A DNA stretch of 64,000 nucleotides from a virus: IMG/VR virus record IMGVR_UViG_3300011261_000048, positions 29,470 through 93,469 of that record. The stretch is one strand, 5' to 3'. The translations under genes and the position numbers were made by a program. Of this stretch, positions 4,044 to 51,096 are shown one piece after another (the stretch's first letter is position 1; every line of letters begins with the position of its first letter). Under the pieces are notes generated by a model. That model did not search any database, was not told the DNA's origin, and saw only the letters and a list, made by a program, of their open reading frames with translations.

Positions 4044-4060
4044 ATTATATTTATTGTTTA

Positions 4061-5554
4061 TTATGCAAATGATGAATAATAACCAGCTTGCATGTTATGG
4101 ATAAAGCTAGCAGTACGAGAAGGATCTCTTACAATAGCAGCTCCACAATAGAACTTGTGCTCTTCCCATGCATCTTCAGCAGTACCTACTGCAGAAAATT
4201 GTGCATCTGGTGCAAAAGGATTTCTCAAACCTGGGATGTACTTGTGTACAATAGGCTGTCCTTTAACTTTACACTTTTGGATGTTTGGTGCTCCTGCAGA
4301 TGTTCCGATATCCATGATATCATATCTGTAAGATTCAACAACTCCTCCAGAAGGATGAAGCATCTTGTTACGGTTTCTGTCATCATACATAGAATCTACA
4401 GAAAGGTTAACCTTAATGTTGTTAGGTCCTAGATATTCAATGAACTGTCCACCATATCCTAATCCCATTTGGAATCCTGATTGTGATACTTTATACATTC
4501 TATCTTGATTCAACAATGGAGTAAACAATTGTGAAAAGTCTTCTAAAGATTTGTGGAACTCGTAAGCACCTCTTTCTCCAGTTCTTAATACAAATTGTCT
4601 TTCATCTGTTTTCAATTTACCTTCAGATAAATCCAAAAGTCTTGAAGACAAATCATTGATATCAAATACATTATAGAAAGAGCTGTTAGCTGCTTCCATT
4701 TGTTGTCTGATTCCTGCTCCTTCAGTAATAGAATAACCTGAGTCACCTTTTATTCTGTATTGTCCATCAGCACTTCTGTTAGATGTTCCAAACATGTATA
4801 ACTTGTTGATATCCTCACGGAACTCATTGTCAAACATGAAAGACTCATAATGTTGCCAGAACTTGATTACCTTTCCAGAATCATCTTTGAAGTATGATCC
4901 CATCTTTTTATTACTCATGTTTCCAGGAGTCTTCTTTTGGATTCTAATTTGTGAGAAAGACTGTCTCATTGAGATATGAGATTTATAGTTAATCTCTCTA
5001 CCTTTTCTAGACATAGTTCTTTCTACTGGAGAGAACTCACCTGAGAATCTTTTATTTGCTTGTACTTCCTCGTAAGGAATAAACAAATCTGCATCTCCTG
5101 AGTCCATTTTACAAGTGTGAACTGTGTTTAGACCTTCAGAAGCAGTAGAGATTACCAATATAGGATAAATCTCATTTAATTCACCTACAATTCTTTGTCC
5201 ATCAGAGAACCAGTTTTTAGGGAATACTAATTCAAAAGTGTTGTAGTTTTTTCCTGGTTCGTCTGCAGGAGTAACTGGTGTTCCGTCAATTCTACATTCT
5301 ACCAACTCAATGTTGTCTAGCCCTTGTGATTGTAAGTCCCATACAAAATCTGTATCGTCTTCTAATTCCAAAGCAGGGTACATAGATAGTACACTATCAA
5401 TGTTATTCCCAAAATAGTTTTGCTGAACATTCATAATCATGTCAGATACCTTTTGTGGAGCTTGTCCCCAGATAGCACCTAAGTGATTTTCTGTAGTCAA
5501 ACCTTTCCATGTAGTAGCATCCGTCATTTGTAATGGGGATATTCTAGTTGCCAT
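4061..5554 (-). CDS. Major capsid protein (crAss-like)
   Basis: 497 aa; N-terminal WKGLTTENHLG, GAGIRQQ, TGERG motifs; TerL-portal-scaffold-capsid gene order. Confidence 0.9.
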   Translation of the reverse strand: MATRISPLQMTDATTWKGLTTENHLGAIWGQAPQKVSDMIMNVQQNYFGNNIDSVLSMYPALELEDDTDFVWDLQSQGLDNIELVECRIDGTPVTPADEPGKNYNTFELVFPKNWFSDGQRIVGELNEIYPILVISTASEGLNTVHTCKMDSGDADLFIPYEEVQANKRFSGEFSPVERTMSRKGREINYKSHISMRQSFSQIRIQKKTPGNMSNKKMGSYFKDDSGKVIKFWQHYESFMFDNEFREDINKLYMFGTSNRSADGQYRIKGDSGYSITEGAGIRQQMEAANSSFYNVFDINDLSSRLLDLSEGKLKTDERQFVLRTGERGAYEFHKSLEDFSQLFTPLLNQDRMYKVSQSGFQMGLGYGGQFIEYLGPNNIKVNLSVDSMYDDRNRNKMLHPSGGVVESYRYDIMDIGTSAGAPNIQKCKVKGQPIVHKYIPGLRNPFAPDAQFSAVGTAEDAWEEHKFYCGAAIVRDPSRTASFIHNMQAGYYSSFA

Positions 5555-12271: not shown

Positions 12272-12559
12272 CTATTTATCTTCTATAATCTCTGATACGG
12301 GACTCATCTTACTAAGCATCTCTTCAGGTATATCCTTTTGGCCACCTTCAATAGATACTAGTTTTGTTTCTCTCTCTTTATTAATTTCTCTTAAGATTGC
12401 TATGTTCTGATTATCCATGAACTCCATTAGAGCTAACATAGTCATTCTTCCCTCAGCATTCTCACATAGGGCAATGACTCTTAAGCCATCTTTACTTACC
12501 CTTGTCATCATGTTATTAAGTACATTAGTTGCACTGTTTACTTCTCTCTCTTTACTCAT
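12272..12559 (-). CDS. Hypothetical protein
   Basis: 95 aa ORF overlapping the GroEL stop, in operon. Confidence 0.6.
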   Translation of the reverse strand: MSKEREVNSATNVLNNMMTRVSKDGLRVIALCENAEGRMTMLALMEFMDNQNIAILREINKERETKLVSIEGGQKDIPEEMLSKMSPVSEIIEDK

Positions 12560-14078
12560 TTACTTCCTTTTTAATTATTACACAGTTAGTAGTAAATAAC
12601 ATGTTTGCTGCACTAACAGCATTTGTTATAGTTGCCTTAATTACTAAAGCAGGATCTACTATTGTACTCTCTATTAACTCTGCTTTTAGTATAGCAGCTT
12701 CACCTTTAGTTAACTCTCCATTCTCACATAGTGTTACCCATAACTTTCTCATACTATCAAATACAATTGGGGCAGCTACGTTACCTTTAAACTTAGGCTC
12801 ACACTTATAGATTAGGTTCTCATAAGCCATACATCCACCTTTAACAACTCCTTGTTCTAGTGCACTCTGTACTGCTCTAATAGTATCATCTAGTCTATCT
12901 TTCTTCTCTTTAACTTCAGCCTCATTAGCTCCTCCTACGTAGATAATAGCTGCACCTGAAGTAAGTAGACCTAACCTCTTCTTGAAGTTCTTAGCTAATC
13001 CTTCCTTATCGTCCTCTATCTTATCTCTGTAGTATTGAACTCTTTCAGCAATAGCTTCAGGTACACCTTTCCTACCAATAATAGTAGTTTCCTTTAAAGT
13101 AATGTTAACTGCATCAGATAAACCTAATGCTCCTACAGTAATACTCTTAACGTCCCATCCTTTCTTCCTAGATATAAAAGCTGCTCCAGTAGCAATAGCT
13201 ATATCTTCTAGTGCCTCTGTTCTAGCATCAGCAATAAAAGGAGCTCTAATAATCTCTATTAAAGAACCATTAGTCTCGTTATTATAAGCAACTATACTAG
13301 CAGCTTGTTCAGTAATGTCCTCACATATAACAAGTAAAGGTCCACCACAACTTTCCTGTAACTTTACTATCTCTACAGCATCTGTTTGAGTAGTGATCTT
13401 CAAGTCAGTAACTAGTATCTTACACTCTAGGTGCTTAACACTAGTTCTACCTCCTACTAAAGCAGGAACAATGTGGCTTCTATCTAACTTAATACCTTCA
13501 GTAGCATCTAAACTAGTCTCGTAGTTTCTTGAATCAAATACAGACACAATACCTTCTACCCCTATTACTTTAAATGCATCACTTACTAATCCAGCAATAT
13601 AACTATCACCATTACAAGCTACCATAGCAACATCTAAAACATCGTCTATAGTAATGTGTTTAGTATTAAGTTCTAGCTCTTCTAGTAGTACCTTTACTAT
13701 CTCATCAATTGAGTTCTTTAATTGAGTAGTGTTTAAAGACTTATTACTATTAAGTACGTTAAATCCTTCCTCTACAATATACCTAGTAAGTATAGTAGTT
13801 GAAGTAGTACCATCTCCAGCAATCTCAGCAGTTTTTGCTGCAGCCTGTCTAATGATCTGGGCTGCAACATTTTCTACTGGGTCTACAAGGTTAATACTGT
13901 TAGCAACAGTTACACCATCTTTTGTAATATGAGCATCGTTAAAGATTTTAGACAACGCTACATTTCTTCCAAAAGGTCCAAAGGTTGTACTTACTGCATC
14001 AAAGATAGTTTGACTACCTTTTAATAATCTTTCTTGTACTTCCTTCCCTTTAATTACCTCACAAGTCTCTCTTACCAT
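12552..14078 (-). CDS. groEL: Chaperonin GroEL-like
   Basis: TFGPFGRNV, ITKDGVTVA, AGDGTTSTT, GGANEAEVKEKKDRLDD, GVVKGG motifs. Confidence 0.95.
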   Translation of the reverse strand: MVRETCEVIKGKEVQERLLKGSQTIFDAVSTTFGPFGRNVALSKIFNDAHITKDGVTVANSINLVDPVENVAAQIIRQAAAKTAEIAGDGTTSTTILTRYIVEEGFNVLNSNKSLNTTQLKNSIDEIVKVLLEELELNTKHITIDDVLDVAMVACNGDSYIAGLVSDAFKVIGVEGIVSVFDSRNYETSLDATEGIKLDRSHIVPALVGGRTSVKHLECKILVTDLKITTQTDAVEIVKLQESCGGPLLVICEDITEQAASIVAYNNETNGSLIEIIRAPFIADARTEALEDIAIATGAAFISRKKGWDVKSITVGALGLSDAVNITLKETTIIGRKGVPEAIAERVQYYRDKIEDDKEGLAKNFKKRLGLLTSGAAIIYVGGANEAEVKEKKDRLDDTIRAVQSALEQGVVKGGCMAYENLIYKCEPKFKGNVAAPIVFDSMRKLWVTLCENGELTKGEAAILKAELIESTIVDPALVIKATITNAVSAANMLFTTNCVIIKKEVNE

Positions 14079-16706: not shown

Positions 16707-16747
16707 ATAAATTATATATGCAAATATAAGCTATATAGCTTATAAAG

Positions 16748-16818
16748 TTTTGGGGAGAAGACTTGAACTCCTATTACCTGGACCAAAACCAGGTGTCCTG
16801 CCATTAGACGACCCCAAA
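16748..16818 (-). tRNA. tRNA-Gln(TTG)
   Basis: TTTGGGG/CCCCAAA acceptor, CCTGG-TTTTGGT-CCAGG anticodon arm, TTCAAGT T-loop. Confidence 0.9.
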
Positions 16819-16823
16819 ATATG

Positions 16824-16895
16824 TGGAGATAACAAGATTTGAACTTGTGTCCCTAGTTCTTCAGACTAGTGCTAGGCCAACTCAGCTATATCTCC
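16824..16895 (-). tRNA. tRNA-Phe(GAA)
   Basis: GGAGATA/TATCTCC acceptor, CTAGT-CTGAAGA-ACTAG anticodon arm, TTCAAAT T-loop. Confidence 0.9.
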
Positions 16896-34022: not shown

Positions 34023-36997
34023 ATGATATATTTAATAACTAATCAAACATCAATAGGTTTAGAAAAAGGTATCAAACAGGCTTCTTTACAGGAGTGTATT
34101 AGTTACCTTTCAGGTATACCTACGCTAGGATTAGATATAGAAACTACTAGGAAGTATAATAAGTATTTTGATTTTGAGGGTTTAGATCCTCACACATCTA
34201 AAATAGTAATGTTACAGATAGGAGATTTACATAATCAATATGTTATTGATACTAGAAATGTAGACATTAGTCCTTTAGTTCCTATGTTTGGTAATAAAGA
34301 TATCACCTTTGTAGGACACAATATAGCCTTTGAGTATAAACATATACTTAAGAACTATGGAGTAAGACTTGCAAAAGTATATGACACTATGATTTCAGAG
34401 CAGTTGCTTAACAATGATGGTGTACAGAAATCCTACTCTTTAAATGCTTTAAATGAGAAGTATTTAGATATTACAGTAGATAAAAGTATTAGGTTAGGTT
34501 TCCTTACTATAGGAGACAGGCCATTTAGTACACATGAAATAATTTATGGTGCTGATGATATTATTAATCCTTTAAGGATAAAGGCTTATCAAGAAGTACA
34601 GATGAGTGCAGAGCATAAGGATATAGAACCTGTGTTTAAATTAGAGATGCGTTTCCTATTAGGTAAGGCAGAGATGGAATATGTTGGAGTACCTTTTAAT
34701 AGGCACATATGGGAAAGTACTTATAATGAAAATTTAAAATTGTTTAATGAAAAAACAGTTGGGCTAAATGAATTTATTATTGCTAACTTCCCTAATAGCC
34801 CATTTATAGAAAGACAATTAGACTTATTTGATGAGTCTACTAAATGTTCTATACAATGGACTTCTTCTAAACAAGTTATAGAATTCTTAAACTTCTTAGG
34901 TATATGTCCTAGAGCAAAATCTAAAACTACTAAAAAGGTTAGAGATACAGCAGAGGCAAAAGAAGTAAGAGCTATACTATTAAGAGATGACCTTAGTGAT
35001 CTAATTAAGGACTTTGTTAAAAGCTACTTAAGTATGAAAGAGTTAGAGCAAAGAGTAACAACTTTTGGTATTAAATTCTTAAAGCATATTAATCCTATTA
35101 CAGGTAGAATACATAGTCATTATAAACAGATACTAAATACAGGAAGAATTTCTAGTAGTGGGCCCAATAACCAAAACATACCTGCTCAACATGAGTTTAG
35201 GAGTGCGTTTTGTGCTGATGAAGGCTCTTACTTAGTTAATGCAGATTACAGTGGTTTGACAATTCAACATATTTTACTAACTTTGTAGTAAAATAATACG
35301 TTATGAATCCAATTAATAAATTTACAGAAGAAAAAAATCAAGAAATACTTAGGTTATATGAAGAAGGTATGTCTCAAAAAGACATTGCTATACTTTACAA
35401 CACATATAATACGTCTATACGTAGAGTATTACTAAGAAATAATATAGCTATTAGAAGCAATAAAGAAATACAAAGTTACATTTCAACTAATCCGTTTAGG
35501 TTAGGAGAGGATGAATCTGATTACTTCTTTGGTTTACTAGTAGCTGATGGATGTATAAGTGCTAATAGACTTACATTAGGACTAAAAAAAGATGATATTT
35601 ATATGTTATATAGGTATGCTAACTTTTTAGGGACTAAAGTAAACGTAAATAGTTATTTTCATAAAAATCACAATAAATTTCAATATGAAGTTAAAGTTAG
35701 AAATGAAGAGATTACCATATTTTTACAAAAGCAAGCACAATTTATTAATAAAAGTGAAAAATTACAGTTATTTATACCGTTAACATGGGCTATACTTAGA
35801 GGTATAACTGATGGGGATGGGGGTTTTATAAAATTAGGCAAGACTAAAAATCAGTTAAGATGGTTTGTAGTAAGTAAGTCTAAGAAGTTTATTGTACAAA
35901 TTTATGAATTTCTAGTAAAAGAAGGGTATCACCCTACTATTACAGGTAATTATGAAAGTTGTTATTATGTAAACTTATATCGTAAAACAGAATTATGTAA
36001 TTTTTTTAAAGATTTATATCAAGATACAGATGTTTACTTAAAACGTAAATATTCTATTTTGGCCACCTTCTATGAGAAATCACTGAAGTAAAACAACCTA
36101 AATTCAGGGAAAGAGAGTATCTTCCAACCCTGAGCAAAATCTATACACCCTAGTGGTAAATTTAAGTATATAGAGATGTGCAGAGACTATAATGGTTGCA
36201 CCTAAACGAGAAAGTTAGACGTAGGTGAAGGGATAGTCCATCCAAGTTGAAGGACGCAAGAGTCAGTGATCTTAGTTAATAATTCTTTAGATGATGATTT
36301 ACTAGAGTTTTATGATAATGGAGGAGGAGATTTGCATAGTTTTGTTGCAAAGAAGATATGGCCAGATTTATTAGGAGGATTATCTCTAGATGAAGTCAAG
36401 GCAGAACATAAAGAAAAGAGACAAATTGCTAAGTCAGCAAACTTTGCCTTAGCCTATGGAGGTAATGGTTTTACTATTGCATCTAATTTAGGTATATCTG
36501 CTGCAGAAGGAGATAGAGTTTATGAGGATTATTTTAAGGCCTTTCCAGGATTAAAGACTTACTTTGAAAGTGTAGTTAAGCAATCATTGGCACAAGGGTA
36601 CATACTTATTGATCCTCATACAAAAAGAAAGTTTTTCTTTCCTTATATTAATGAATACTATAAGTATCAATATCAAGGTAATAAAAGAAAGGCTGATGAA
36701 TTAGAAGGTAAAATGTCTAGGGCAGCTATGAATTATTGTATTCAAGGTGCTGCAGGAAGTATGACAAAATATGCCATTGTATTAATTTATGAATGGTTAC
36801 TAGGTAATAAAGAATTACTAGAAAATATAAAATTAGTATTAACAGTCCATGATGAAATAATTCTAGAAGCTAAAGAAGGCTACCAAGACATTGCAAAAGA
36901 AAAACTATCTCACTATATGGTAGAGGCAGGAAGTGTGTGGTGTAAAAGAGTACCTATTAAGGCTGATGCTGTGATTTCAACAATATGGGAACATTAA
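34023..36997 (+). CDS. polA: Family A DNA polymerase, exons 34023-35255 and 36257-36997
   Basis: Exonuclease DIET; splicing restores motif A DYSG|QE; motif B RQIAKSANFALAYG; motif C TVHDE. Confidence 0.93.
35256..36256 (+). mobile_element. Group I intron in polA
   Basis: Exon ends in U, intron ends in G; guide GGCCAC near 36061; core words GCAGAGACTA and GGGATAGTCC. Confidence 0.9.
35303..36091 (+). CDS. Intron-encoded LAGLIDADG homing endonuclease with N-terminal HTH
   Basis: FFGLLVADG and ILRGITDGDG motifs. Confidence 0.9.
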   Translation: MNPINKFTEEKNQEILRLYEEGMSQKDIAILYNTYNTSIRRVLLRNNIAIRSNKEIQSYISTNPFRLGEDESDYFFGLLVADGCISANRLTLGLKKDDIYMLYRYANFLGTKVNVNSYFHKNHNKFQYEVKVRNEEITIFLQKQAQFINKSEKLQLFIPLTWAILRGITDGDGGFIKLGKTKNQLRWFVVSKSKKFIVQIYEFLVKEGYHPTITGNYESCYYVNLYRKTELCNFFKDLYQDTDVYLKRKYSILATFYEKSLK

Positions 36998-43229: not shown

Positions 43230-44219
43230 ATGTACGGTAAAAAAGTAGTTAGTCAGGATAATATTCTTGCATTAATAAATTCCTACGATATATTTAAGAA
43301 GTATATCGTAGGGTTTGTTGATGTAGGTAAGGCATTTAAAAGTGAGTTAAGACCAGATAAATCCCCTACTTGTGTAGTGTTTAAAGGAAATACAGATTTA
43401 CTATATAAAGATTATGCAGTAACAGGAGCATTAAGTTGCTTTGGTTACATTATGCAGAAATATAGTTGTAATTACTTTCAAGCATTAGATATAGTAAACA
43501 GGGATTTTAATCTAGGTTTTGAGTCATCAGTGTCAGACTATGAATATACTCCTACAGCTTCTATTGTCTATAATGTAGATGTATCTAAGATAGAATCAAC
43601 ACCAGCTGATATTAGAGTTAGTGTACGTAATTGGAATGAGAATGATAAATTGTATTGGCATGACCAGTATGAATTTACAGTTAAAGAGTTAGAAATAGGT
43701 AAAGTATACCCTTTAGAGGGGTTTTGGCTTAATGATTCTTACTTTAAAGCACATTCTACAGCATATGGTTACTACTTTGGTTTCAAAGAAGGTAGAGAAC
43801 TATGGAAGATATATCAACCTTATAGCAAGAAAGCTAAATTTTTTACAAATACAGGTCCAGATGATTATCAAGGATTTGATTTACTCCCTGAAACTGGAGA
43901 TAGGTTAATAATTACTAAATCATATAAAGATGTACTAGTCTTAAGGAAACTTGGCATACATGCTATAGCTCCTCAAAGTGAGTCATCTATTATAGATAAA
44001 GATTTTTATGATTACCTACTTACACGTTTCAAAGAAATCAGATTATTATTTGATAATGATAAGCCTGGAATAACAGCAGCTAATAAGTTACAAGAACTAA
44101 TTGGCATACAACACTTTATATTGCCTCAAGATACTAAAGATTGTGCTGACTTTGTACATAAATATAACTACGCTAAGTTATTAGAATATATTAACCGATG
44201 TTGGGAAGTTATGAAGTAG
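43230..44219 (+). CDS. dnaG: DNA primase (TOPRIM)
   Basis: SELR.DKSPT, ITKSYKDV, LFDNDKPG, KDCAD motifs. Confidence 0.88.
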   Translation: MYGKKVVSQDNILALINSYDIFKKYIVGFVDVGKAFKSELRPDKSPTCVVFKGNTDLLYKDYAVTGALSCFGYIMQKYSCNYFQALDIVNRDFNLGFESSVSDYEYTPTASIVYNVDVSKIESTPADIRVSVRNWNENDKLYWHDQYEFTVKELEIGKVYPLEGFWLNDSYFKAHSTAYGYYFGFKEGRELWKIYQPYSKKAKFFTNTGPDDYQGFDLLPETGDRLIITKSYKDVLVLRKLGIHAIAPQSESSIIDKDFYDYLLTRFKEIRLLFDNDKPGITAANKLQELIGIQHFILPQDTKDCADFVHKYNYAKLLEYINRCWEVMK

Positions 44220-45724
44220 TGATTCCTGAATGGGAAAGCAGCTACCAGAAATCTGCAAAAAGAATGCCTAAGTATTGGCTATGGACAGAAAGAGAAAAAT
44301 TACCAATAAAGCATACAGAAAACTTAAGACGCACCCCTCTAATTATAGGAGGTAAAGCGTATTGCTGTAATGATTTAGAGGAAAGGTTTCTTAAAAATAC
44401 CAAAACTGCAGGAAAACCTAATCTTTGGGTAATGAACGGTCAGGATTAAACACAAATAGTTTGAAAGTATACAGATTTTAACTATATTTGTATATGGAAA
44501 AATTAGAACAACTTATAATAGGATCAATGTTAGGAGATGGATATTTAGATAAAATATCACATACATTGAAAAATTCAAGATTATCTATAGCTCACAGTGC
44601 TAAACAAAAAGAGTATTGTGAATATAAACATAGTATATTAGCTGAAAAAGAATTAGCTGGTAAACTTTGTTACAATAAGATAGTTAATGATAGGTATAAA
44701 GAGGGATTTATTGAAGAGTATAGGTTTCGGAGTAAGACGAATCCTATATTTACTGAATATAGAGAACTTTTTTACAAAAACAAGAAAAAGATTGTACATA
44801 GAAGTACTATACAGAAAATGAATGCTTTAGGATTAGCCATATGGTTTATGGATGATGGAGCTAAAACAATTTCTGGATATCTGTTATGTACTCAATCTTT
44901 TACTAGGAAAGAAAATAATTTCTTAAGAAAATTACTTAAAGATAAATTTAATATTGAAACAACTTTGCAACCGCAAAGTAATATGATATATATCCGAAGT
45001 AAATCTAAAGAATTATTTACTTCTACTATTAGTCCTTATGTTATAGAATCTATGAGATATAAGTTATTTATATAGGTCCTGAATAAACTATGTGAATTGC
45101 TGGAACACTAAGTGAAATAATAAGTGACAGATGCTGGGAATGGTTACGCTCTGTTTATGCTAACCTGGAAAGAACAGCTTATTATTTTGTATGTCAATCA
45201 GCAGCCAAGGCTCTCAGAAATGAGTTCAAGGTTCAACGACTAGTACATGGAGTCTCAGCATTAAGTTGGAGATAGTAAAGTACCAAGAGCGCATAGCACC
45301 TCATGTGGAGGTGATGATATAGTCTGAACTATATGGAAACATATAGAAGTGCAGGATAAAGAGCCAGCACGATAACAAAATGTTATATAATGCTACTTTA
45401 AATTGGCGTTTACGTAAAACCGTGGCTAAATATTACCATACTTATTTTTCTAAATACATCAAAGCACAACTTAAGAAACCTATTATTATACCTGAAGGTA
45501 AGTATCTATCTATTTCATGTGATATATATGAAATAAGACGTAGAACTATGCCTGATGTGTCTAATATGTGGCTACTAGAGAAGTTCTTTGAGGATTCTTT
45601 GCAAGAGTGTAAAGTAATTCCAGGGGATGACCCTGATTATGTATTAGAAAGTGGTAGAAAAAGATATCACTGGGTTGAAAATGAAGAAGATAGAAAACTG
45701 GTGTTTACTATCAAAATAATTTAA
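44198..45724 (+). CDS. RusA-like Holliday junction resolvase, exons 44198-44446 and 45383-45724
   Basis: Splicing gives NGQD|LYNA; C-terminal DVSN...KFFEDSL...IPGDD..YV is RusA-like. Confidence 0.75.
44447..45382 (+). mobile_element. Group I intron in the RusA-like gene
   Basis: Exon ends in U, terminal G; guide GGTCCTG near 45075; core GAATTGCTGGAA, AATCAGCAGCCAAG, TTCAACGACTA, GATATAGTCT. Confidence 0.92.
44494..45075 (+). CDS. Intron-encoded LAGLIDADG homing endonuclease
   Basis: IIGSMLGDG and LAIWFMDDG motifs; ATG at 44494. Confidence 0.9.
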   Translation: MEKLEQLIIGSMLGDGYLDKISHTLKNSRLSIAHSAKQKEYCEYKHSILAEKELAGKLCYNKIVNDRYKEGFIEEYRFRSKTNPIFTEYRELFYKNKKKIVHRSTIQKMNALGLAIWFMDDGAKTISGYLLCTQSFTRKENNFLRKLLKDKFNIETTLQPQSNMIYIRSKSKELFTSTISPYVIESMRYKLFI

Positions 45725-45833: not shown

Positions 45834-46055
45834 ATGGAAGATGAAGAATTAAAAACAAAAATAGAAAGCATAATAGGATACAAGCCTAAAGTATTACTGG
45901 CAGATAAAATCAGATATGCTTTGGAAGACGCTTATGATAAAGCTAAAAAATCACTAGAAAGATCCTCTTCAGGAGAAGAGTTTATTACAAACAAAAATAA
46001 GTTTGACGAGGCTGTTAAAACTTATTCATTATTTATGTTAAAAATCACAAATTAA
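45834..46055 (+). CDS. Hypothetical protein
   Basis: 73 aa; first gene before the Ubl operon. Confidence 0.6.
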   Translation: MEDEELKTKIESIIGYKPKVLLADKIRYALEDAYDKAKKSLERSSSGEEFITNKNKFDEAVKTYSLFMLKITN

Positions 46056-46056
46056 G

Positions 46057-46353
46057 ATGAGAAAAATTACAATTGTATCAACTAAGATTGACGGGAAAAA
46101 AGAATTAAATTCAAGTGCAACTACATGGGGAGAGTTAAAACCTGAATTAGAAAATAACGGTATCAGTATTTCTGATATGAAAGTTATGGAGAAGGTTTCA
46201 AAGATGACACTTGATAGTGATGCAGCAATGCTACCTACAGGAGATGTTATTCTTTTCCTTACACCTGGTAAGGTGAAAAGTGGTAGTGATGAAATTACTG
46301 CCCACCAAGAAGCAATGGTTGCAAAACTACGTGCTCTTAGAGATAGCATTTAA
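46057..46353 (+). CDS. Ubiquitin-like (beta-grasp) protein
   Basis: Beta-beta-alpha-beta pattern ending ILFLTPGKVKSG (Gly76) plus a 22-aa tail; next to E2/JAB/E1. Confidence 0.65.
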   Translation: MRKITIVSTKIDGKKELNSSATTWGELKPELENNGISISDMKVMEKVSKMTLDSDAAMLPTGDVILFLTPGKVKSGSDEITAHQEAMVAKLRALRDSI

Positions 46354-46405
46354 ATATATAAGGGGGGCTTATGCTCCCCTTTTTTATTAACTTAAAAATT
46401 ATAAT

Positions 46406-47575
46406 ATGTCAGAACAAGATGACTTTGCATTATTAGAAGCCAGATTAGCTGATGATAGTAATGTAACAGTAATAGAAAATACTTCAGTACCTAGTGTACC
46501 AGAAGTAGTGGAGGAAGTAGTTGTAGACAGTATACCTGAACCTATTATTACACCTATTGTAGTAGAGAAGACAAAACCTAAAGAGACTAGATTAGAAATG
46601 AGAATAAGACTAGTTAAAGAGGTAGCAGAGGAAATACATGGAGGAAATTGGGATTTTATTGCCCTTAAAGATTACCCTTTAGATTATGATTCTAAATATC
46701 TTACTACTGCTAGATTTGCATTAACTATACATTTTCCAGAGTTTGTAATAACTAATAGTAGAGGACATATACATACTATAAGAGATTTATATGTTAGAAT
46801 GTACTTTAATAGTAGTATGAGTCATTTACAAGGATGGTTTGGTACTAGAAGTACGTATAGTTATCCAGAATTTAAAAGTAAATATGGTCATTCCCATTTA
46901 CCAACTATTACCAGTAATGATGGCACTAGAATAAGTTCTTTTGGTAGATTTTGTTTAGGAGGAGATAGTGATACAGGAAGTATAGTATCAACCCTAACTG
47001 TAGAGGAATGGAATATAGAAGAATTTAAGAATGCACTATTAATACTACATTCTTATGTAGTATGGGAATCTATAGAAGGAGGTCCTTATAGGAGAATGGA
47101 AAATATCACTATGAAAGGGGGAAGTAGTGGGGCATATAGTCCTGGTACTACTGCTATAGAGCAAACATTTAAGAGGTATTGTATGGAATCTGAAATTTAT
47201 CCTGTATTTACTGTAGATACGTCATATGATGTACCTTCAATTAAAGTACAAAATGAAGCAGAGTTAGAAGTAGCATTAGCTGTAGGACTTAGCCCAAATT
47301 ATATAAGATATAGAGATAGTAATGGTGATATCCATACTATTGATGCTTCTACAAACATAAGTACTATTAACAGATCTATCAGTAATATAAATAGTAAACA
47401 AATACCTTTCTTTACTTTTAAAGGAGTAGGTGTTAAAGCAAAAGTATTAGAAATGGATAATACAGAGGATACTAATGAAGCCATAGTGCATATAGCCCAT
47501 CCCTATGTTACTAAGTTTGCTATAGCACAATTAGAAAAAGAGGCTAATATATATTTATTAAAAATTAAAAAGTAA
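46406..47575 (+). CDS. Prokaryotic E2-like conjugating enzyme
   Basis: YGHSHLP...FCLG active-site-like motif; operon context. Confidence 0.65.
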   Translation: MSEQDDFALLEARLADDSNVTVIENTSVPSVPEVVEEVVVDSIPEPIITPIVVEKTKPKETRLEMRIRLVKEVAEEIHGGNWDFIALKDYPLDYDSKYLTTARFALTIHFPEFVITNSRGHIHTIRDLYVRMYFNSSMSHLQGWFGTRSTYSYPEFKSKYGHSHLPTITSNDGTRISSFGRFCLGGDSDTGSIVSTLTVEEWNIEEFKNALLILHSYVVWESIEGGPYRRMENITMKGGSSGAYSPGTTAIEQTFKRYCMESEIYPVFTVDTSYDVPSIKVQNEAELEVALAVGLSPNYIRYRDSNGDIHTIDASTNISTINRSISNINSKQIPFFTFKGVGVKAKVLEMDNTEDTNEAIVHIAHPYVTKFAIAQLEKEANIYLLKIKK

Positions 47576-47578
47576 AAT

Positions 47579-48805
47579 ATGAGTTTAAAAGATGATGGTA
47601 AAGTTCATAGTAGAACTGTAGTACCTATAAAAGATAAAGCTAAGTTAATTCTTAGTAAAGAAGTAGTAATGAAAATTCATTATTTACATACTAGAGTAAA
47701 GAATAATACAGAATGGAGTGGTATTTTAGTATTTAATACCAAAGAAGGGAGTATAGATAACCCTGCTAATTGGGTATTAGAAGCAGAAGATTTTATCTTT
47801 ATGGATGTAGGTACAGGAGCATATACAGAATATGATTTTGATACAGATGATACGTACTCTTTTGATAAGTATACTGATGCTATGGCAGAAGGTAAGAGAT
47901 TAGGTCATATCCATACTCACCATAATATGAAGACTTTCTTCTCAGGTACTGATATGTCAGAGTTACATGAAAATGCACCAAATCATAGTTACTATGTAAG
48001 TTTAATTGTAAACTACAAGGAACCTGATGAGTGGTGTGCTAAAGTAGCATTTGTAGGAGAAGAAAAAGTATCTGGTACTATAACTAGAACTAAGAATTCT
48101 CTATTTAACCTGTTAGGATTTGGTAGTGAAGTAACTGAAACTATTGAGAAAGTAGTTCCTATTCTGTATACTATAGATTTAGATTTAGAGTTAGCAGAGG
48201 AAATTAAACCTTTCTATGATAGAGTTACTGAAATATGTACTCCTAAAGTTGTTAAAAGAGCTGTAGGAAGAGCTGTAGGAGCATCTACTCACCATGCTGG
48301 ATGGCATGGAGGATTTAGGGATTGGGATTTACCTACTTTAGGTACTTTAAAAAGTAAAACACCTACTTTATTTGACAAAAAAGAGCCAGAGATTCAAAGA
48401 AGACCTGCAGGATTATATAGTAAACCTTCAGTTATGGATTTTTTACCTAAACTAGCTTATGCAGATTTACAATCTAAAGCTAGAATAGGGGAAGTGTTTA
48501 AAACTGCTACAGCGTTACCTGATGTACATATAGAAATATTAGTGGAACAAATGGAGGAGAATTTTGAAGATTATATAGCAGATTTCTTTGCTATAAATAA
48601 ACTGACAGATTTAGATACTTTCTGTGTGGCTTTACAAATAATAGACACATGTACGATATATGATGACACTTATTTATATAATTGTCTATCTGAAGTACTA
48701 GCAGTTTATTTAGATGTAGATAGAGATGCAGAATTTGATAAAAAAGTAATGCTATTAACTAATTTAAAAGATACAACAAAATGGGCAGCAATGACAGCAA
48801 TATAG
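47579..48805 (+). CDS. JAB/MPN+ metalloprotease
   Basis: EWSG and HTHHNMKTFFSGTD (HxH-x7-SxxD). Confidence 0.9.
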   Translation: MSLKDDGKVHSRTVVPIKDKAKLILSKEVVMKIHYLHTRVKNNTEWSGILVFNTKEGSIDNPANWVLEAEDFIFMDVGTGAYTEYDFDTDDTYSFDKYTDAMAEGKRLGHIHTHHNMKTFFSGTDMSELHENAPNHSYYVSLIVNYKEPDEWCAKVAFVGEEKVSGTITRTKNSLFNLLGFGSEVTETIEKVVPILYTIDLDLELAEEIKPFYDRVTEICTPKVVKRAVGRAVGASTHHAGWHGGFRDWDLPTLGTLKSKTPTLFDKKEPEIQRRPAGLYSKPSVMDFLPKLAYADLQSKARIGEVFKTATALPDVHIEILVEQMEENFEDYIADFFAINKLTDLDTFCVALQIIDTCTIYDDTYLYNCLSEVLAVYLDVDRDAEFDKKVMLLTNLKDTTKWAAMTAI

Positions 48806-50030
48806 ACAATAAAAAAGTAAGATTCAGTGATGCAGATTGGTATAAATCTGGTCCTGAAGATATTATTGTAGGTGGAGTTGGAGGTATTGGTTCCTGGGTA
48901 GCATTATTGCTGTCCAGGATTGGCCATGAACTCCATATCTACGATGATGATACAATAGATGAAACAAACATGGCAGGACAACTTTACCCTATTTCAGCAA
49001 TAGGTAAAAGTAAAGAAGTAGCTGTTATGGAGATGATTAGAGATTTCTCAGGAACACGTTGTTCTTCAAATGGTAGATACACAAAGGATTCTTTATATTC
49101 TCCTATAGTGTTTAGTTGCTTTGATAACATGGAAGCTAGAAAAGTAATGTTTGAGAAGTGGGCAGCTGAAGAGGATAGAGAATTATTTGTAGATGGTAGA
49201 GCATAATATGAAATTTTTTCGTATATTATACAATCTGCCCCTGTTAGTAGTAATATTAACAGTGGAGAGGATGAATTGCTGGAAAGCTAAGTAGAAATAA
49301 AATATTGCGTTGAAAAATAACTCGCTTAATTGTTGGTGAAAGATATATACGCATATAGGAACCCCCGTTTGGAAGTAGTAGGTTAAAAACTTCCCCTAGA
49401 TGATTAGCAAAGGGTTAGGAGCTAATTATTCGGAATAAAGCAAGAAGACTCCCTTAGCTCCGTCTTAAGAGTTGACAGGTTATACGGGTAAGCCGTGAGA
49501 TACTTCAAATAGAAAGAATCTAAAAACTAGAAAGGGTTTAACTAGCCCTTTTGTATTTTTATATGCCAATCAGCAGCCAAGCCATAGACACATCTATGGA
49601 AGGTTCAGAGACTACCTGAGCACTAAAGTGTGCTTAATAACAGGAAGTAGATAGGGTTAGTAACCTATTGAAAAAGCGTCCTCCACCCTAATAGGGTGAT
49701 GATATAGTCCGTGCCTATATGAAAATATAGGAGAGCACGAGAATGCTTGCAGAAACAGGTATGGTGTTTCTAGTTCAAAAAGGACAAGAGGACCAATATA
49801 GAGCAGAGATTTTTGCTGATTCAGAAGTTGAAGATGCACCTTGCTCTTTTAAAGCTACAAGTCATTGTGGTTCATTTATAGCTTCCTTAATGGTAGCAGG
49901 ATTAAATAATTACCTAGCTAATAGGTATATTAATGCAGATATTAGAAGTATGGATTTCAGAATTGATTTTGAATTACCTCTATTAAATGTACAAGCTACT
50001 AACGTAGTAGCTGAAGAAGTAATAATTTAA
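48781..50030 (+). CDS. ThiF/E1-like activating enzyme, exons 48781-49197 and 49740-50030
   Basis: GVGGIGS, DDD...NMAGQ, DNMEAR; splicing restores DG|RMLAE; APC candidate catalytic Cys. Confidence 0.9.
49198..49739 (+). mobile_element. ORF-less group I intron in the E1 gene
   Basis: P1 GGT|AGA pairs with TCTGCC (U.G at splice site); core GAATTGCTGGAA, AATCAGCAGCCAAG, TTCAGAGACTA, GATATAGTCC; terminal G. Confidence 0.92.
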
Positions 50031-50040
50031 AATAGTAAAT

Positions 50041-51096
50041 ATGACAGATATACGTGAAGTATTTGATAGCCAAATAATACAGAACCATTCTAGTAAAAAT
50101 TATGAGTATGCTCCTAGTATTGGTAGAAATACTTCAACTATCCCTTTACTTAATAACAGTAAGCAGGCAGAGTATGTACCCTTACATGGTATAAATGCTA
50201 TAATGGCTATAGAAATGAGGAGGACTTATACATCTGGAAGTAATTATGGACATTTTGATAGGACTACTTTAATGTCACATGATATAGGCAAAAAACTAGT
50301 ACGTGTAATGGTAAAGTGTATAGAAAGACTTCCAGATTATACTGAGTTACTGAAGTATAATAGGGGATTAAATGTACACATAGCTAGTATAGTAGATAGC
50401 TTATTTAAAAAAAATCAAGCAGTTATCTTAGCAAATTTTGATGATGCTAGTACCCAATCCCTAGAAAAGTTAGCTAAAGACTTACTGAGGCAGAGTATAA
50501 ATATCATTATTGATAAAGTCATTTATGGTACTATAGAATATGGATTACCTGATATGTCTTTTAATCATTATGGTAGTAGTTACGCTGAATTAATAAGATC
50601 TAATAAGCATGCATATAGATGGCATCATATTAATTTACGTACTCAAGCTTTTATGGTTAACAGGGGAAGTATATACAATATACAGCGTACTTACCATAAT
50701 AGGGAATTACGTATACTTAGACCTTTAATGGAGACTGTACTACATAAGGACTTTGTACCTTATGTTTACTTATGTATGATTATGAAGGAAAACCCTTTAC
50801 CTGAAGTTTATGAGGTATGGGTAGATCCTGAATTTGATGTAGTAAGGTCAGAGTTTAAGAACTTAAGACCTCATTATAGAAAGCATATTAAGGCTCCTTT
50901 AGTAGCAGCAGGTATAGATATTATACCTACTGATAGTATTTTAACTTCATTATATAATACTGTAAGCATTCCTAATGAAGTAAAAAGTATTAAGGAGAAA
51001 AAGGTGTGGCTAAGTGATTTAGCATTAGAGGTTAAAGAGCATATTAGTTTCAGACAGCAGTTAAATATGGAACGTCAATTAACATTAGTACCATGA
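50041..51096 (+). CDS. Hypothetical protein following E1
   Basis: 351 aa ORF in operon. Confidence 0.65.
   Translation: MTDIREVFDSQIIQNHSSKNYEYAPSIGRNTSTIPLLNNSKQAEYVPLHGINAIMAIEMRRTYTSGSNYGHFDRTTLMSHDIGKKLVRVMVKCIERLPDYTELLKYNRGLNVHIASIVDSLFKKNQAVILANFDDASTQSLEKLAKDLLRQSINIIIDKVIYGTIEYGLPDMSFNHYGSSYAELIRSNKHAYRWHHINLRTQAFMVNRGSIYNIQRTYHNRELRILRPLMETVLHKDFVPYVYLCMIMKENPLPEVYEVWVDPEFDVVRSEFKNLRPHYRKHIKAPLVAAGIDIIPTDSILTSLYNTVSIPNEVKSIKEKKVWLSDLALEVKEHISFRQQLNMERQLTLVP

Follow-up and report, generated by a model that had tools for sequence, protein, structure and literature searches.

The closest described systems to the locus analysed here are two bacterial machineries of ubiquitin-type conjugation, Type I Bub and Bil. 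The first, previously called 6E.1, is composed of BubAB, BubCD and BubE (Ye et al. 2024, PMC11601596). Bil is composed of the ubiquitin-like protein (Ubl) BilA, the E2 BilB, the JAB peptidase BilC and the E1 BilD, and carries out anti-phage ubiquitination (Chambers et al., PMC10557695). Here, we describe a cassette of four adjoining plus-strand genes, in the order Ubl, E2-like, JAB and E1, encoded by a virus. The stretch of DNA analysed (the window, 64,000 nucleotides) is the right-hand part of the 93,469-bp IMG/VR virus record IMGVR_UViG_3300011261_000048, whose completeness is rated at 98%. The folds, motifs, conservation, gene order, intron and phage restriction observed in this analysis lead us to consider it rather probable that the cassette is a virus-owned Ubl activation and conjugation system; the chemistry at each step, the function of an E2 and the kind of targets (host or phage proteins) are inferred from these features. 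The cassette and the elements around it are arranged as follows, in window coordinates.

45834-46055, plus strand: ORF 45834 (73 residues), an open reading frame (ORF) directly 5′ of the Ubl gene, lineage-specific
46057-46353, plus strand: Ubl precursor (98 residues); domain residues 1-76 at 46057-46284, Gly76 codon at 46282-46284, then a 22-residue helical tail
46360-46387, plus strand: terminator-like hairpin with a 9-bp G+C-rich stem, a 4-nucleotide loop and a T-run, between the Ubl and E2-like genes
46406-47575, plus strand: E2-like protein (389 residues); modelled UBC/RWD-fold core at about residues 57-245, C183 codon at 46952-46954, C-terminal domain at residues 246-389
47579-48805, plus strand: JAB/JAMM metallopeptidase (408 residues); catalytic N-domain with H112-D125 at 47912-47953, and a fast-evolving C-terminal domain
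48781-49197, plus strand: E1 exon 1 (ThiF/UBA5-type, residues 1-139) with the GGVGGIGSW nucleotide loop
49198-49739, plus strand: group I intron (542 nucleotides, without ORF), located by Rfam RF00028 and an intron-less homolog
49740-50030, plus strand: E1 exon 2 (residues 140-235) with the crossover-loop residues Y159 and C174 (the latter at codon 49842-49844); phrog_15670 positions 148-222
50041-51096, plus strand: gene X (351 residues), fast-evolving, close behind the E1 gene

The order Ubl, E2-like, JAB, E1 is observed in 11 of 11 related loci with enough flank, namely the window, the close relatives L002 and L003, cr111_1, crAss001 (Gp79-76), bajarodcaudo virus 1, FpV4 (gp53-50) and four contigs of metagenome-assembled genomes (MAGs). 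Cultured carriers of the cassette are crAss001 and the Flavobacterium phage FpV4.

Type I Bub is the closest system in architecture. It shares with the phage cassette the collinear order of Ubl, E2, JAB, E1 and a fifth gene, and an E1 that consists of one adenylation domain with no separate CYS domain (homodimeric ThiF/UBA5 type) and whose crossover loop holds an invariant Tyr. The Bub E2 has a diverged UBC fold, and BubB (9eav_D) matches the E2-like model with a Z score of 4.7. In both systems, JAB cleavage after a conserved Gly frees the Ubl, although for the phage this cleavage is predicted. On the other hand, the Bub proteins are joined in two fusions, Ubl-E2 and JAB-E1, whereas the phage genes are four and separate. 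Bub relies on Tyr and Ser oxyesters and has no catalytic Cys, whereas the phage E1 and E2-like proteins keep an invariant Cys. The fifth Bub gene encodes a DUF6527 peptidase, which gene X is not; the E2-like protein carries a C-terminal domain additional to BubB and has no sequence similarity to it; and Bub resides in bacterial defence islands whereas the present cassette is phage-encoded.

Bil is similar to the cassette in being made of four separate proteins, with roles that correspond to those predicted for the phage proteins, in the baring of the Ubl C-terminal Gly by JAB pre-processing, likewise predicted for the phage, and in its E1 and E2, which bear catalytic cysteines where the phage E1 and E2-like proteins have an invariant Cys. 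However, BilD is a large E1 in which inactive and active adenylation domains are accompanied by a mobile CYS domain and a Zn site, and the phage E1, of 235 residues, has none of these. Moreover, the CEHH motif of BilB is lacking in the E2-like protein, where the conserved order is H-S-H...C...E, and Bil serves to defend the host by tagging the tail proteins of phages. Two more distant comparisons can be made. The Cap2/Cap3 pair of type II CBASS employs E1, E2 and JAB chemistry, and the PADLOC E1-E2 and JAB models weakly match the phage E1 and JAB, but E2 and E1 are fused in Cap2, the C-terminus of the CD-NTase serves as substrate, there is no Ubl, and the E2-like protein gives no match to the PADLOC Cap2 models. 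PRTRC (ParB-related, ThiF-related cassette) similarly combines a small ThiF-type E1 with small partner proteins. Membership in PRTRC was considered and rejected: PRTRC_ThiF reaches 39.4 of the 144.75 bits set as its cut-off, and the other PRTRC models (NCBIfam, TIGR03736 and others) match no protein of the cassette. Collectively, Type I Bub and Bil remain the nearest known systems; the cassette departs from each named family in the features that define it, yet plausibly works like them.

The Ubl sequence reads ...LFLTPGKVKSG76 (K72-V-K-S-G76) and continues into the 22-residue tail, exactly as an earlier note, made from the sequence alone, had described it. In seven homologs the segment LFLTPGK-x-KSG is invariant, and three of the seven terminate 1-3 residues past the Gly. 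Across all 11 loci, conservation halts at K-x-[KR]-[SG]-G, one locus having K-I-K-G-G. The length of the tail beyond this point varies widely among relatives: 1, 1, 1, 1, 3, 21-23, 122 (cr111_1), 135 (crAss001 Gp79), 164 (bajarodcaudo virus 1) and 206 (FpV4 gp53) residues, two of the single-residue tails being those of MAG contigs. Such a conserved domain that ends exactly at Gly76 and is followed by variable tails fits trimming by the JAB peptidase. By this comparison of homologs, the tail is dispensable and the domain ends at the invariant Gly76.

In the gut crAss-like phages cr111_1, crAss001 (Gp79) and bajarodcaudo virus 1, the tail itself is conserved (AMSR.EAY...GLQ...FGKNF). Cleavage may thus free a second protein with a function of its own, and these conserved tails of 122-164 residues resemble in this respect the ubiquitin-ribosomal protein fusions.

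The AlphaFold2 (AF2) model of the Ubl (predicted local distance difference test score, pLDDT, 72.7) has a bb-a-bb(b) topology, which is the element order of ubiquitin, with residues 73-79 disordered and a helical tail. Foldseek retrieved ubiquitin, SUMO, NEDD8 and the B. fragilis ubiquitin at probability 1.0, with TM scores of 0.6-0.73. When the model was compared with 48,161 chains, the best 50 structural matches were all beta-grasp proteins, with Z scores from 9.6 to 7.5 and a root-mean-square deviation of about 2 Å over 66-73 residues. The assignment of the Ubl to the beta-grasp fold, with a processable C-terminal Gly, is thus well supported by modelling, in line with the expectation of the earlier note.

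The hairpin at 46360-46381 and its T-run form the top terminator-like site within 43-53 kb of the window (-18 kcal/mol, z -3.3). L002 and L003 have a hairpin with a T-run at the equivalent place 3′ of their Ubl genes, and one G-C pair of the stem is replaced there by A-T, both sides being altered. This compensatory change supports a genuine terminator or attenuator, as had been proposed from the window sequence.

The JAB protein carries the complete JAMM signature, E45-W-S-G and H112-T-H114-x7-S122-x2-D125. The metal motif noticed earlier is indeed intact and, together with the catalytic Glu, identical in 11 of 11 loci. Pfam Prok-JAB matches with E 3.6e-5 and 24.1 bits, just below its cut-off of 25, and the PADLOC JAB models match weakly (E 3.2e-5). 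In L003 the JAB gene (L003 positions 4056-5323) is present as two ORFs of 294 and 121 residues, which may reflect a frameshift, a sequencing error or a genuine split.

The E1 reading frame halts at 49206 and picks up at 49743. Within this zone, at 49215-49731, Rfam RF00028 (group I intron) is matched over the full model with 64.6 bits versus a cut-off of 50 (E 8e-15). The E1 of L003 (237 residues; 77-79% identical) is intron-less and reads ...ELFVDGR/MLAETG... gap-free over the junction, which fixes the junction of the exons. The intron boundaries were set by two rules, namely that the 5′ exon ends in U and that the intron ends in G. In the resulting arrangement, GGU/AGA (49195-49200) pairs with UCUGCC (49234-49239) to form a P1 helix of 6 bp, the splice site is the canonical U.G pair of U49197 with G49237, and the terminal intron G lies at 49739. 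The 3′ core of the intron resembles introns of other phages. The joined exons are in frame and give a spliced E1 of 235 residues, whereas the unspliced RNA would yield a fragment of 141 residues. The insertion is located between the Gly and Arg codons of a D-G-R motif invariant in 57 homologs, a site typical of a homing intron. As judged from these sequence features, the E1 gene is split by a 542-nucleotide group I intron of the self-splicing type. The earlier note had reported a ThiF/E1 gene with an APC motif; its motifs are present, but the gene is not one ORF, the intron having been overlooked, and APC belongs to exon 2.

Upstream, the RusA-like resolvase gene (44198-45724, plus strand) is interrupted by another group I intron. 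Exon 1 of that gene spans 44198 to about 44446 and exon 2 about 45383 to 45724, with 70% and 81% identity to the intact L003 homolog of 194 residues. This intron carries an ORF for a LAGLIDADG homing endonuclease (44488-45075; Pfam E 3e-37), and its 3′ end (45309-45395) resembles Staphylococcus and Clostridium phage introns, while Rfam gave no call.

Exon 1 alone matches Pfam ThiF with 46.2 bits (E 4e-12; cut-off 28.1), and the L003 homolog reaches 62.4 bits. The nucleotide-loop motif GGVGGIGSW is encoded by exon 1 and A-P-C174 by exon 2. Invariant among the 57 homologs, in L003 numbering, are GGxGGIGSW, D56, N62, K77, D114, R119, Y158 and C173, the last two corresponding to Y159 and C174 of the window E1. 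The crossover-loop Cys is found in all loci, FpV4 among them, and hhalign places C174 on C184 of E. coli ThiF with a probability of 95.4%. The Cys that UBA5 has in or at the end of this loop is C250. The zinc motif of ThiF, CYRC, is replaced by AYRAE. In NCBIfam the nearest families are ThiF-type adenylyltransferases, far under their cut-offs, and the PADLOC E1-E2 models score weakly. When the profile of the 57 homologs was compared with solved structures, human UBA5 ranked best (E 9.5e-11), followed by PaaA, TcdA, MccB, ThiF, SAE2, MoeB and UBA3. The similarity to UBA5 is confined to the nucleotide-binding half, and the UBA5-UFM1-UFC1 system differs in being eukaryotic and in having cysteine proteases, not a JAB, as trimming enzymes. 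UFM1 starts out as a precursor in which trimming bares a Gly, and UFC1, a minimal E2, lacks the HPN motif. UBA5 itself is a minimal homodimeric E1 whose catalytic Cys lies close to where the crossover loop ends (PMC11601596). The classification of the phage E1 as a minimal adenylating enzyme of the ThiF/UBA5 type, with an invariant Cys at the position of ThiF C184, is well supported at the sequence level. Prediction of a complex of two E1 copies, Ubl 1-76 and the E2-like core, all from L003, gave a score of 0.00, which speaks neither for nor against binding.

The E2-like protein contains the motifs H162-S-H-L-P and F182-C183-L-G, at the coordinates where the earlier note had seen them, and belongs to a family of 2341 cluster representatives at E<=1e-3. 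In 88 diverse homologs S163, H164, C183, G185, E221, S222, G225 and P227 are invariant, and N117, G146, R148, E155, Y160, H162 and W220 nearly so. In the AF2 model (pLDDT 85.6), residues 57-245 form a core of a helix, four strands, a long loop and two helices, followed by a separate C-terminal domain. The long loop holds both H-S-H and C183, the latter sitting between strand 4 and helix 2. In a structural search (pdb_via), 44 of the 50 best rows were E2, UEV or RWD proteins, with Z scores of 4.2-5.9. A wide structural search, independent of Foldseek, gave the GCN2 RWD domain (Z 5.8), the Tsg101 UEV domain (5.5) and BubB (4.7), and further chains in it were UBE2J2, Ubc8, Ubc9, Ubc13 and UBE2F. 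Foldseek itself returned no significant match for this protein, E2 and UEV chains being dispersed among the weak ones. In the ESM Atlas, the nearest named structure clusters carry UQ_con at TM 0.44-0.46, which is a lead only. The catalytic residues C93 of Ubc9, C91 of Ube2W and S333 of BubB fall at about residues 182-186 of the model, by rough linear interpolation without superposition, so that C183 plausibly sits where the cysteine of an E2 is expected.

As for sequence, the E2-like protein has no Pfam family (none being common to the 88 members), no PADLOC or NCBIfam family and no PHROG with a function, and its family profile gave chance-level matches only against PDB sequences. The structure check proposed earlier thus yielded the expected matches to the UBC superfold, but at Z 4.2-5.9 only and with no sequence or Pfam link. 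Moderate fold matches and the gene context make it plausible, with moderate support, that this is a diverged UBC-fold protein with the role of an E2.

Comparison of the window with L003 revealed that the components of the cassette evolve at different rates. Identity is 65-81% in the flanking replication genes, 76% in Ubl 1-76, 74% in the JAB N-terminal domain and 77-79% in E1, so that the Ubl, the JAB core and E1 keep pace with their surroundings. In the E2-like protein it is 39% overall (45% in the core, 34% in the C-terminal domain), in the JAB C-terminal domain 41% and in gene X 32%; these three change about twice as fast as their neighbours. For ORF 45834 the value is 53%. The conserved parts would be the cores that bear the chemistry, and the twofold faster ones are those that could contact targets.

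Gene X and ORF 45834 had been put forward as candidate specificity factors. The rates of gene X and of the E2-like protein are compatible with this proposal. ORF 45834 has homologs in the close relatives L002 and L003 only (53-58% identity). The window copy of ORF 45834 has no family match; a WWE domain in the L003 copy is sub-threshold (E 0.0097) and was not counted as evidence. Gene X has a single detectable homolog, in L003, and gave no family or fold lead: there is no Pfam family, and a poor Atlas model had no usable match. No similarity was detected between gene X and the fifth gene of cr111_1 (hhalign) or FpV4 gp49 (BLAST). An ORF of 200-365 residues abuts the end of E1 in nine of the ten loci checked, the L012 locus stopping inside that ORF. 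Sequence similarity among these ORFs is not detectable.

In GenBank phages, the per-genus counts of E2-like and E1 proteins match over 73 records (29 Flavobacterium, 29 Bacteroides, 12 uncultured and 3 others). The E1 search added six further phage records, four of them Xanthomonas jumbo phages, whose related E1 has a Cys at the equivalent position. In the one that was inspected, PhiXhv-12 (227 kb), the profiles detect no Ubl, E2-like or JAB gene beside E1; a 70-residue ORF follows the E1 gene. When 185,579 prokaryote species were each represented by a single genome, this type of E1 occurred on only six MAG contigs, which probably come from phages. The distribution of E1 in phages versus prokaryote genomes indicates that the cassette is a phage trait and not a host defence island. 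Contigs L010, L013 and L014 bear the labels Promethearchaeia, Nitrososphaerota and 'uncultured archaeon', and L010 and L013 have the full cassette; all three are probably phage contigs that were wrongly binned. With a single E2-like protein as query, no locus was found in viral contigs, and the Ubl alignment as query gave two loci only.

The genomic setting is that of a crAss-like phage. The minus strand of the window encodes crAss-type major head, portal and terminase genes. The plus strand carries a long replication module with DNA polymerase, helicases, a Sak4-like protein, primase, exonuclease, uracil-DNA glycosylase (UDG) and ribonucleotide reductase. The cassette lies in this module, between primase/RusA-like genes and exonuclease/UDG genes, and occupies the replication module in all related phages, whatever the host. 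Elsewhere in the window, a GroEL-like chaperonin gene (12552-14078, minus strand; phrog_5725, E 3.6e-94) adjoins the terminase gene, and tRNA-Gln (UUG) and tRNA-Phe (GAA) genes adjoin each other at 16747-16895 on the minus strand. In the zone 34023-36997 of the plus strand, the DNA polymerase ORF of 421 residues matches the middle of the polymerase profile only. ORFs of 262 and 243 residues lie close behind it, so the polymerase gene may also be split.

These data could be combined into the following scheme for a virus-owned conjugation system. The Ubl would be made as a precursor, probably in excess of the enzymes owing to the terminator-like hairpin 3′ of its gene, and JAB/JAMM would cleave after Gly76 to remove the 22-residue tail. 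The minimal and probably homodimeric E1, produced only once the group I intron has left its mRNA, would adenylate Gly76 and load the Ubl onto Cys174 of the crossover loop, in the vicinity of the invariant Tyr159. The E2-like protein would take the Ubl on Cys183 and hand it to lysines of the targets. The C-terminal domains of the E2-like and JAB proteins and gene X might select or regulate the targets, and JAB may in addition undo conjugates.

Several points weigh against this scheme, most of them concerning the E2-like protein. It has no sequence tie to any E2 family (UQ_con, Prok-E2) and lacks the HPN motif, with H-S-H at that place. Its fold matches are middling (Z < 8), and the non-enzymatic UEV and RWD domains match it as well as true E2s do. 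H162, H164, C183 and E221 could form a metal site instead, and the per-residue equivalence of C183 with the E2 cysteine is one of interpolation only. Furthermore, the modelled fold of the Ubl cannot tell a modifier from a sulfur carrier, the Z scores being 8.6 for ubiquitin and 8.1 for MoaD.

This last point leads to an alternative that we consider unlikely, namely a sulfur-carrier pathway. The Ubl would act like ThiS, MoaD or CysO: JAB would bare its Gly and E1 would adenylate it to give a thiocarboxylate for cofactor, tRNA or DNA modification, with the E2-like protein as a persulfide relay or a sulfur-accepting enzyme. JAB-trimmed sulfur carriers do exist, with Mec+ acting on CysO and QbsD on QbsE, and ThiF C184, with which the invariant Cys of the phage E1 aligns, functions in sulfur transfer. 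The ThiF-ThiS and MoeB-MoaD pairs share with the cassette the E1 fold and a beta-grasp partner with a C-terminal Gly. MoaD is almost as good a match to the Ubl model as ubiquitin, and E1 is nearest in sequence to the ThiF-type adenylyltransferases of NCBIfam, though far under their cut-offs. However, these systems, and CysO/Mec+ and QbsE/QbsD too, have no UBC-fold partner and end in Gly-Gly, whereas the phage Ubl ends mostly in Ser-Gly and is strictly co-conserved with a partner of UBC-type fold. The phage E1 lacks the CxxC pairs through which ThiF and MoeB bind Zn, as seen at AYRAE, and sulfurtransferase partners were not found in the cassette or the genome. Indeed, no rhodanese, cysteine desulfurase, PP-loop ATPase or ThiS/MoaD family was detected in this 98%-complete phage genome, though host enzymes could substitute.

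It is also improbable that the Ubl is activated but never conjugated. E1 would then build a C-terminal modification, as the ThiF-like enzymes MccB and PaaA do on peptides, or the Ubl would be a cleavable fusion partner or chaperone of its tail, and the UBC-fold protein would be a non-catalytic adaptor of the UEV/RWD type or some other, metal-binding enzyme. The positions of PaaA and MccB just behind UBA5 in the E1 profile search are compatible with such a function, as are the UEV/RWD scores as high as those of E2s, the invariant His, Cys and Glu cluster that could bind a metal, and the conserved domain of 120-165 residues that follows the Gly in Steigviridae. On the other hand, many Ubl homologs have tails of 1-3 residues, hence their general function cannot lie in setting free a tail domain. 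Moreover, a thioester relay requires just such a pair of invariant cysteines, one in the E2-type loop and one in the crossover loop of E1. Very improbable is a role mainly in counter-defence, in which JAB reverses host conjugation of the Bil, Bub or CBASS type while the Ubl and E1 act as competitors or poisons of the machinery of the host and do not tag targets of their own. The attack of bacterial Ubl systems on phage virion proteins (Bil, summarised in PMC11601596) would suit it, and so would the twofold rate of gene X, the E2-like protein and the C-terminal domain of JAB, as such a rate is expected where an arms race is fought out. However, a lone deconjugase needs no Ubl, E1 and E2-like protein strictly co-conserved in fixed order in 11 of 11 loci, and the cassette lies in the replication module of all related phages irrespective of host.

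We retain the conjugation scheme as the best explanation. In GenBank, the E1 is labelled 'thiamine biosynthesis protein ThiF' and the JAB 'metalloprotease', with one record reading 'E1 enzyme family protein'. The earlier note had mentioned ThiF and JAB genes in crAss-like genomes, which is borne out by crAss001, where Gp76 is annotated 'ThiF' and Gp77 'metalloprotease'. It knew of no functional description, and none was found in our literature search either, nor any paper tying Crassvirales to a Ubl system. The main text of the two main crAss001 papers does not mention Gp75-79, and one 2026 preprint refers in passing to a gut-phage protein family resembling UBA5.

On a wider scale, the chances seem to us evenly balanced that Crassvirales and related Bacteroidota phages (crAss001, DAC15, FpV4) own a full Ubl cascade with a previously unrecognised E2 family, whose fast-evolving parts aim the tag at host or phage proteins, possibly for take-over of the cell or for counter-defence. 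If true, it would be the first tagging system of the ubiquitin type to be owned by a virus of prokaryotes. So far, ubiquitin-type conjugation in prokaryotes has been characterised either as a bacterial anti-phage weapon, as with Bil and type II CBASS, or as the business of bacterial operons whose role is unknown, as with Bub; here, the whole kit stands on the phage side. It would add a new E2-like family with >2000 cluster representatives. The intron in the E1 gene points to a conserved homing target in this genome, and E1 expression would hang on RNA splicing. The cassette is fixed beside the primase gene in a large crAss-like group that includes three cultured model phages, which makes the idea directly testable. 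It would also raise the question of what a phage tags, whether factors of the host, proteins that replicate the phage or build its virion, or the defence proteins of its host.

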